NCBI RefSeq assembly: GCF_030384885.1
Contig: NZ_CP128613.1
Direction: 5' to 3' (one strand)
From: Escherichia coli
GTDB taxonomy: Bacteria > Pseudomonadota > Gammaproteobacteria > Enterobacterales > Enterobacteriaceae
Length of the DNA stretch: 64,000 nucleotides
The notes under the pieces were generated by a model. That model worked only from the letters and a program-made list of their open reading frames with translations, was not told the origin of the DNA and did not search any database. This document shows, piece by piece, positions 58,539 to 58,685 of this stretch (its first letter is position 1; every line of letters starts with the position of its first letter). The position numbers were made by a program, and so were the translations under genes.

Positions 58539-58608
58539 GGGAACCTTCACCTGAAAAAAGAACAATTAATATGATGATATGACACTATTTGGATAGCAGG
58601 AAGGTTTC

Positions 58609-58626
58609 TGTCAACAATCATTGACA
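58609..58626. promoter_or_regulatory. TyrR-box-like palindrome upstream of tyrR
   Basis: TGTCAA-N6-TTGACA perfect palindrome, resembling the TyrR box TGTAAA-N6-TTTACA, 70-90 bp upstream of the tyrR start. Confidence 0.45.
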
Positions 58627-58685
58627 CAAAGACGGAAAAACGGGCACTTCGGCGTAAAGATATCCGGTCAGCACCCGATATTGCA

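Follow-up and report, generated by a model that had tools for sequence, protein, structure and literature searches.

We conclude that a perfect palindrome upstream of Escherichia coli tyrR is very probably the strong, high-affinity TyrR box in the tyrR promoter and the operator for TyrR autorepression, an assignment made by sequence comparison. Neither this reading of the operator nor the autorepression loop is new; both were described in the 1980s, and the site is a textbook element. Autoregulation of the tyrR gene was reportedly described by Camakaris and Pittard in 1982 and the tyrR sequence and start sites by Cornish et al. in 1986, and the tyrR operator is said to be covered in the 2005 review of Pittard, Camakaris, and Yang. 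The element occupies positions 58609..58626 of the window, a 64,000-nt stretch of contig NZ_CP128613.1 (assembly GCF_030384885.1), where a direct read-out of the sequence gave TGTCAACAATCATTGACA, a perfect inverted repeat. The initial annotation had described a perfect TGTCAA-N6-TTGACA palindrome at this place, and the exact window string recovered from 58609..58626 was tgtcaacaatcattgaca, in which TGTCAA and TTGACA are exact reverse complements with 6 nt between them. Read in the tyrR sense the palindrome is TGTCAATGATTGTTGACA, which is reportedly how the tyrR strong box reads in the Pittard reviews and RegulonDB. The 18-mer and its sub-strings were not quoted in searchable full text, and the supplement of PMC5343134 held no site sequences.

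The palindrome in the ycjF-tyrR spacer

The gene downstream of the palindrome is beyond doubt that of TyrR. Its product matched the NCBIfam TyrR equivalog with 1054.6 bits (cut-off, 576) and carries the TyrR/PhhR helix-turn-helix at residues 460-507. The palindrome had been placed upstream of this gene, and with the coding sequence on the minus strand and its ATG at 58538, that placement is correct: the palindrome lies inside the 147-nt spacer that runs from the ycjF stop (58686) to the tyrR ATG and starts 88 nt upstream of the start codon. Between the ycjF end and the tyrR ATG (165 aligned columns), the sequence was 100% identical to that of K-12 MG1655, in which the palindrome lies at NC_000913.3 1386632..1386649. 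Because of this identity, anything mapped in K-12 holds here unchanged, and the palindrome is the same element as its K-12 counterpart, very probably the published tyrR operator, with no difference at the sequence level. The features of the locus, with positions counted from the transcription start site (TSS) in parentheses, are as follows.

56997..58538, minus strand: tyrR coding sequence, 513 aa, 510/513 identical to K-12 TyrR
58567, minus strand: tyrR transcription start (A), the published TSS (PMC3415461) transferred through the 100% identical alignment; 29-nt 5' UTR
58574..58579, minus strand: -10 hexamer TATCAT (-12..-7), placed from the published TSS; TAT[CT]AT in 81/81 sequences
58597..58603, minus strand: -35 region CTTCCTG with hexamer TTCCTG at 58602..58597 (-35..-30), placed from the TSS
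58609..58626, no strand assigned: very probable strong TyrR box (-59..-42, center -50.5 relative to the mapped TSS)
58653..58670, no strand assigned: candidate weak TyrR box (-103..-86), reading TGACCGGATATCTTTACG in the tyrR sense; 7/12 matches, G-N14-C kept

Variation within E. coli was slight. The intergenic spacer was found in 5415/5426 complete E. coli genomes, and the 30 nt centered on the box were identical in 5292 of these 5415. A rare variant in which TTTGTGTCAA is replaced by TTTAAGTCAA occurred in approximately 3 of the 5415 genomes (LR882978.1, CP024240.1). In this variant (AAGTCAA), the most divergent found, the flanking G and box position 1 were changed and G-N14-C was kept.

On the other side of tyrR, a 680-aa open reading frame annotated as "hypothetical protein" (54917..56959, plus strand) lies between tpx and tyrR, where K-12 has 43 bp. 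It had no Pfam family match, and a full-length match to it was present in only 30/5426 complete E. coli genomes.

Agreement with and departure from the TyrR box consensus

The TyrR box consensus is TGTAAA-N6-TTTACA; boxes with at least 10 matches are classed as strong, and a G and a C spaced 14 bp apart (G-N14-C) are invariant and essential (PMC4374768). The 18-bp palindrome matches this consensus at 10 of 12 positions with full dyad symmetry, which places it among the strong boxes, and it keeps the G at position 2 and the C at position 17, as did 80/80 related loci. The proposed TyrR-box spacing was thus borne out, with two 6-bp arms around a 6-bp spacer. So was the remark that the half-sites are off consensus centrally: the sole departures, one in each arm, are C for A at box position 4 and G for T at the mirror position 15.

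How much of this could arise by chance depends on what is counted. The exact pattern TGTCAA-N6-TTGACA occurred once in the window against an expectation of 0.01, a figure that overstates the case for the palindrome. Perfect 6-N6-6 inverted repeats of any sequence numbered 22 (14.5 expected from shuffles), and 18-mers with at least 10/12 matches to the TyrR consensus and an intact G-N14-C numbered 2 (1.8 expected). Since these whole-window counts are near expectation, the sequence of the palindrome proves little by itself. A TyrR-consensus match of the same grade is expected only approximately 0.004 times in a 147-nt spacer before tyrR, and it is this position, together with conservation across genera (see below), that lifts the palindrome above chance; on these two grounds we rejected the reading of the palindrome as a chance occurrence.

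For comparison, we scanned upstream of eight further K-12 regulon members for TyrR boxes. Nine boxes with 10-12/12 matches were found upstream of aroP, aroL, aroG, tyrP, aroF, mtr, and folA; no 10-12/12 box was found in the upstream region of tyrB. The tyrR box shares with these strong boxes the 18-bp palindrome, the A/T-rich 6-nt spacer, G-N14-C, and a score in the 10-12/12 range, and its own 10/12 equals that of one box each of aroP, aroL, and aroF. It differs from them at positions 4 and 15, which are A/T in 18/18 half-sites of the nine other boxes and C/G in both arms of the tyrR box. A/T at these positions is typical of strong boxes, although not a defining feature, and is absent here.

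This difference dominates the weight-matrix comparison. On a matrix built from the nine strong boxes of the other operons, which is partly circular because those sites were picked by consensus match, the tyrR box scored 9.1 bits versus 13.5-23.7 bits for the training sites, i.e., 4-15 bits lower. The matrix scan that the initial annotation had proposed as a check therefore failed to single out the palindrome, which ranked second to third in the window; its low rank follows from C/G at positions 4 and 15, where all 18 training half-sites have A/T. The best match to the matrix in the window (49733) falls within the ynaI coding sequence and was taken as a chance match. The probability that none of the 11 mismatches in the training set would fall at position 4 was approximately 0.09, which is weakly significant, and with training sites chosen by consensus match, the contrast with the other K-12 boxes is suggestive only. 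A possible precedent for G at position 15 is found at tyrP, in TGTAACGTCGGTTTGACG, a 9/12 box-like 18-mer that carries TTGACG and follows the strong box 23 nt downstream.

The unusual bases could also mean that another palindrome-recognizing regulator binds the site, instead of or besides TyrR. Such a protein would explain why C/G is conserved at positions 4 and 15 here when A/T occupies them in 18/18 half-sites elsewhere, but we know of no candidate. Against it, all other TyrR determinants are kept (TGT-N12-ACA, G-N14-C, and the A/T-rich 6-nt spacer), the contrast at position 4 has the weak significance given above with a consensus-selected training set, and the site fronts the gene of a regulator reported to be autoregulated (PMC5343134). 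We assign this possibility a very slight probability, and nothing in the sequence data appears to require a different protein at the palindrome.

Conservation across genera and promoter geometry

Conservation was assessed in 80 tyrR loci, one genome per species, from approximately 20 genera of Enterobacteriaceae, with 84-99% protein identity. A search for TGT-N12-ACA, which leaves positions 4-6 and 13-15 free, found exactly one match in the 220 nt upstream of tyrR at each of the 80 loci, 84-99 nt from the ATG, and left no locus without a match. The left arm was TGTCAA in 80/80 loci and the right arm TTGACA in 76/80; four Buttiauxella-like loci had either TTAACA or TTCACA as the right arm. The off-consensus bases are themselves kept, the C in every left arm (80/80) and the G in 76/80 of the right arms. 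The 6-nt box spacer took at least 10 sequence forms over the 80 loci while remaining constant in length and A/T-rich. In an alignment anchored on the box, whose anchor pattern fixes part of the arms, information content was 1.97 bits per arm position, 1.6 bits in the box spacer, and approximately 0.7 bits in the 26 nt upstream. Fixed arms around a free spacer of constant length form a pattern that reads as the signature of a dimeric DNA-binding protein, and across the Enterobacteriaceae the two arms are under strict purifying selection while the spacer drifts. One of the records, CACSKA010000006.1, is titled "Chryseobacterium sp. 18061," yet its tyrR locus is enterobacterial (89% identity) and bears the same operator; the record is probably mislabeled or contaminated.

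An inverted repeat can also act as a nucleic acid hairpin, here as the ycjF terminator or as structure in a read-through transcript, with no protein bound. The repeat does fold as RNA (-8.5 kcal/mol; z = -2.1 versus shuffles), but the A/T-rich stem is followed by GAAACC and not by a U tract, a terminator scan of 58450..58800 found none, and transcription of tyrR starts downstream of the element. The comparative data also speak against a hairpin. Arms that never vary offer no compensatory changes, and the spacer, which would form the loop, stays A/T-rich and constant in length, in the manner of protein sites. We consider a hairpin without a protein site to be extremely improbable.

The palindrome holds a fixed place relative to the core promoter. 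One data set, with 4 reads, maps the tyrR TSS to NC_000913.2 1384715, which leaves a leader of 29 nt, and the sequence given upstream of it ends in ...TTGTTGACAGAAACCTTCCTGCTATCCAAATAGTGTCATATCATCATATTA (Kim et al. 2012, Table S1, PMC3415461). Relative to this start, the box spans -59..-42, in the promoter region as expected of a TyrR box, and in 81/81 sequences exactly 29 nt separate the box from the -10 element TAT(C/T)AT, although the sequence between them is poorly conserved. The -35 region TTCCTG matches TTGACA poorly, and its CTTC (-36..-33) is invariant across genera (2.0 bits at -36..-34 and 1.9 bits at -33).

Several further observations concern the same region. CTTCC (58599..58603, minus strand; -36..-32) is conserved about as strongly as the box and the -10 element in the 80 loci. 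TG at -17/-16 (58583..58584, minus strand) is invariant; in an extended -10, the TG would stand two bases further downstream. The sole consensus promoter-like match nearby, TTCACC-18-TATGAT (9/12; 58546..58575, plus strand), overlaps the tyrR leader and probably arises only because the -10 region is rich in A/T. A Cappable-seq data set had no entry near tyrR. The table of Kim et al. 2012 (Table S1, PMC3415461) also assigns to tyrR a second start, with 2 reads, inside ycjF at NC_000913.2 1384333; this start precedes the tyrR ATG by 411 nt and corresponds to roughly position 58949 of the window.

The right arm of the palindrome, TTGACA, is a perfect -35 consensus, and only a single base sets the TyrR arm TTTACA apart from it, exactly the base that is off consensus here; the tyrP 18-mer TGTAACGTCGGTTTGACG, with its TTGACG, shows a similar arm. 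The conserved element might then primarily be the sigma-70 -35 hexamer of the tyrR promoter, its palindromy incidental or secondary. The mapped TSS, however, sets TTGACA at -47..-42, 29 nt from the conserved -10 instead of 16-18 bp. Hexamers 16-18 nt downstream of it (CCAAAT, CAAATA, and AAATAG) are poor -10 matches in a stretch of 0.3-0.9 bits, a consensus promoter scan found no promoter on the tyrR strand, and the opposite strand likewise has no -10 after the hexamer. Moreover, the left arm TGTCAA is equally invariant, which a -35 role could not explain. We therefore regard a primary -35 function as very unlikely and retain the reading of the palindrome as the TyrR operator.

A poorer candidate box lies upstream of the strong one. 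It lies exactly 44 nt upstream of the strong box, and the two centers are 44 bp, or approximately four helical turns, apart. In 44/81 sequences, a G-N14-C element with at least 6/12 matches occupied precisely that offset (median at other offsets, 0), and the right arm there was TTTACG or TTTACA in 52/81. Loci of the Enterobacter and Lelliottia groups, whose intergenic spacer is shorter, had no box at the 44-nt offset and instead carried nGTGAGGTTTTGTTyACT, with its G-N14-C, at an offset of 30 nt. Each of the two offsets comes close to an integral number of helical turns, an arrangement that would suit cooperative binding. The strong/weak pairs of tyrP, aroF, and akr-ipdC of Enterobacter cloacae are built likewise, from a strong box and a poorer box that keeps G-N14-C. 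The spacing differs, however: the tyrP boxes are adjacent, with centers 23 bp apart, whereas the centers of the strong box and the candidate weak box of tyrR are 44 bp apart.

A proposed mode of tyrR autorepression

In E. coli, TyrR negatively controls tyrR, which ranks with the best-conserved members of TyrR regulons across gammaproteobacteria (PMC5343134). The suggestion that the palindrome is consistent with TyrR autoregulation agrees with its position in the promoter region and with the identity of the intergenic spacer to that of K-12, in which autoregulation is established (PMC5343134). A TyrR dimer would bind with one helix-turn-helix on each arm of the palindrome. Centered at -50.5, the bound dimer would abut the weak -35 (TTCCTG) and cover the zone in which the alpha C-terminal domains of RNA polymerase dock. 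The box overlaps neither the -35 nor the -10, so simple promoter occlusion is not evident and we infer the mode of repression from this geometry. Bound TyrR may lower initiation at tyrR without abolishing it and may so provide a modest negative feedback that fixes the cellular level of TyrR, to which the upstream candidate weak box may add cooperative binding. Partial repression from a box at -50.5 would be consistent with the roughly two-fold, cofactor-independent autorepression of tyrR that is reportedly described in the Pittard reviews.

This arrangement differs from those at other TyrR-controlled promoters. The activating box of tyrP and ipdC lies 33 bp upstream of the -35 center (PMC4374768), unlike the tyrR box with its center at -50.5, and the aroG box is described as overlapping the -10, an overlap that the tyrR box does not have.

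The C/G pair at positions 4 and 15 probably sets the affinity of the operator and, through it, the set point of the feedback. Conservation of these bases is most simply read as stabilizing selection that acts on the affinity of the operator and thereby on the steady-state level of TyrR. It is unlikely, in our judgment, that C/G at positions 4 and 15 together with the exact 29-bp lock to the -10 amounts to a specific, undescribed property of the operator, for example, an affinity set point under stabilizing selection or a second role of the perfect TTGACA/TGTCAA hexamers, which might serve sigma-70 region 4 as a decoy or compete with the alpha C-terminal domain.

The main value of this analysis is that of a positive control, in which a real operator was recognized from raw sequence. 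The comparative detail that it adds is modest and consists of the conservation of the off-consensus bases, the fixed phasing with the core promoter, and the candidate weak box at a four-turn offset. As the very probable operator of tyrR, the palindrome would close the loop of negative feedback through which E. coli sets the level of its master regulator for aromatic amino acid synthesis and uptake.
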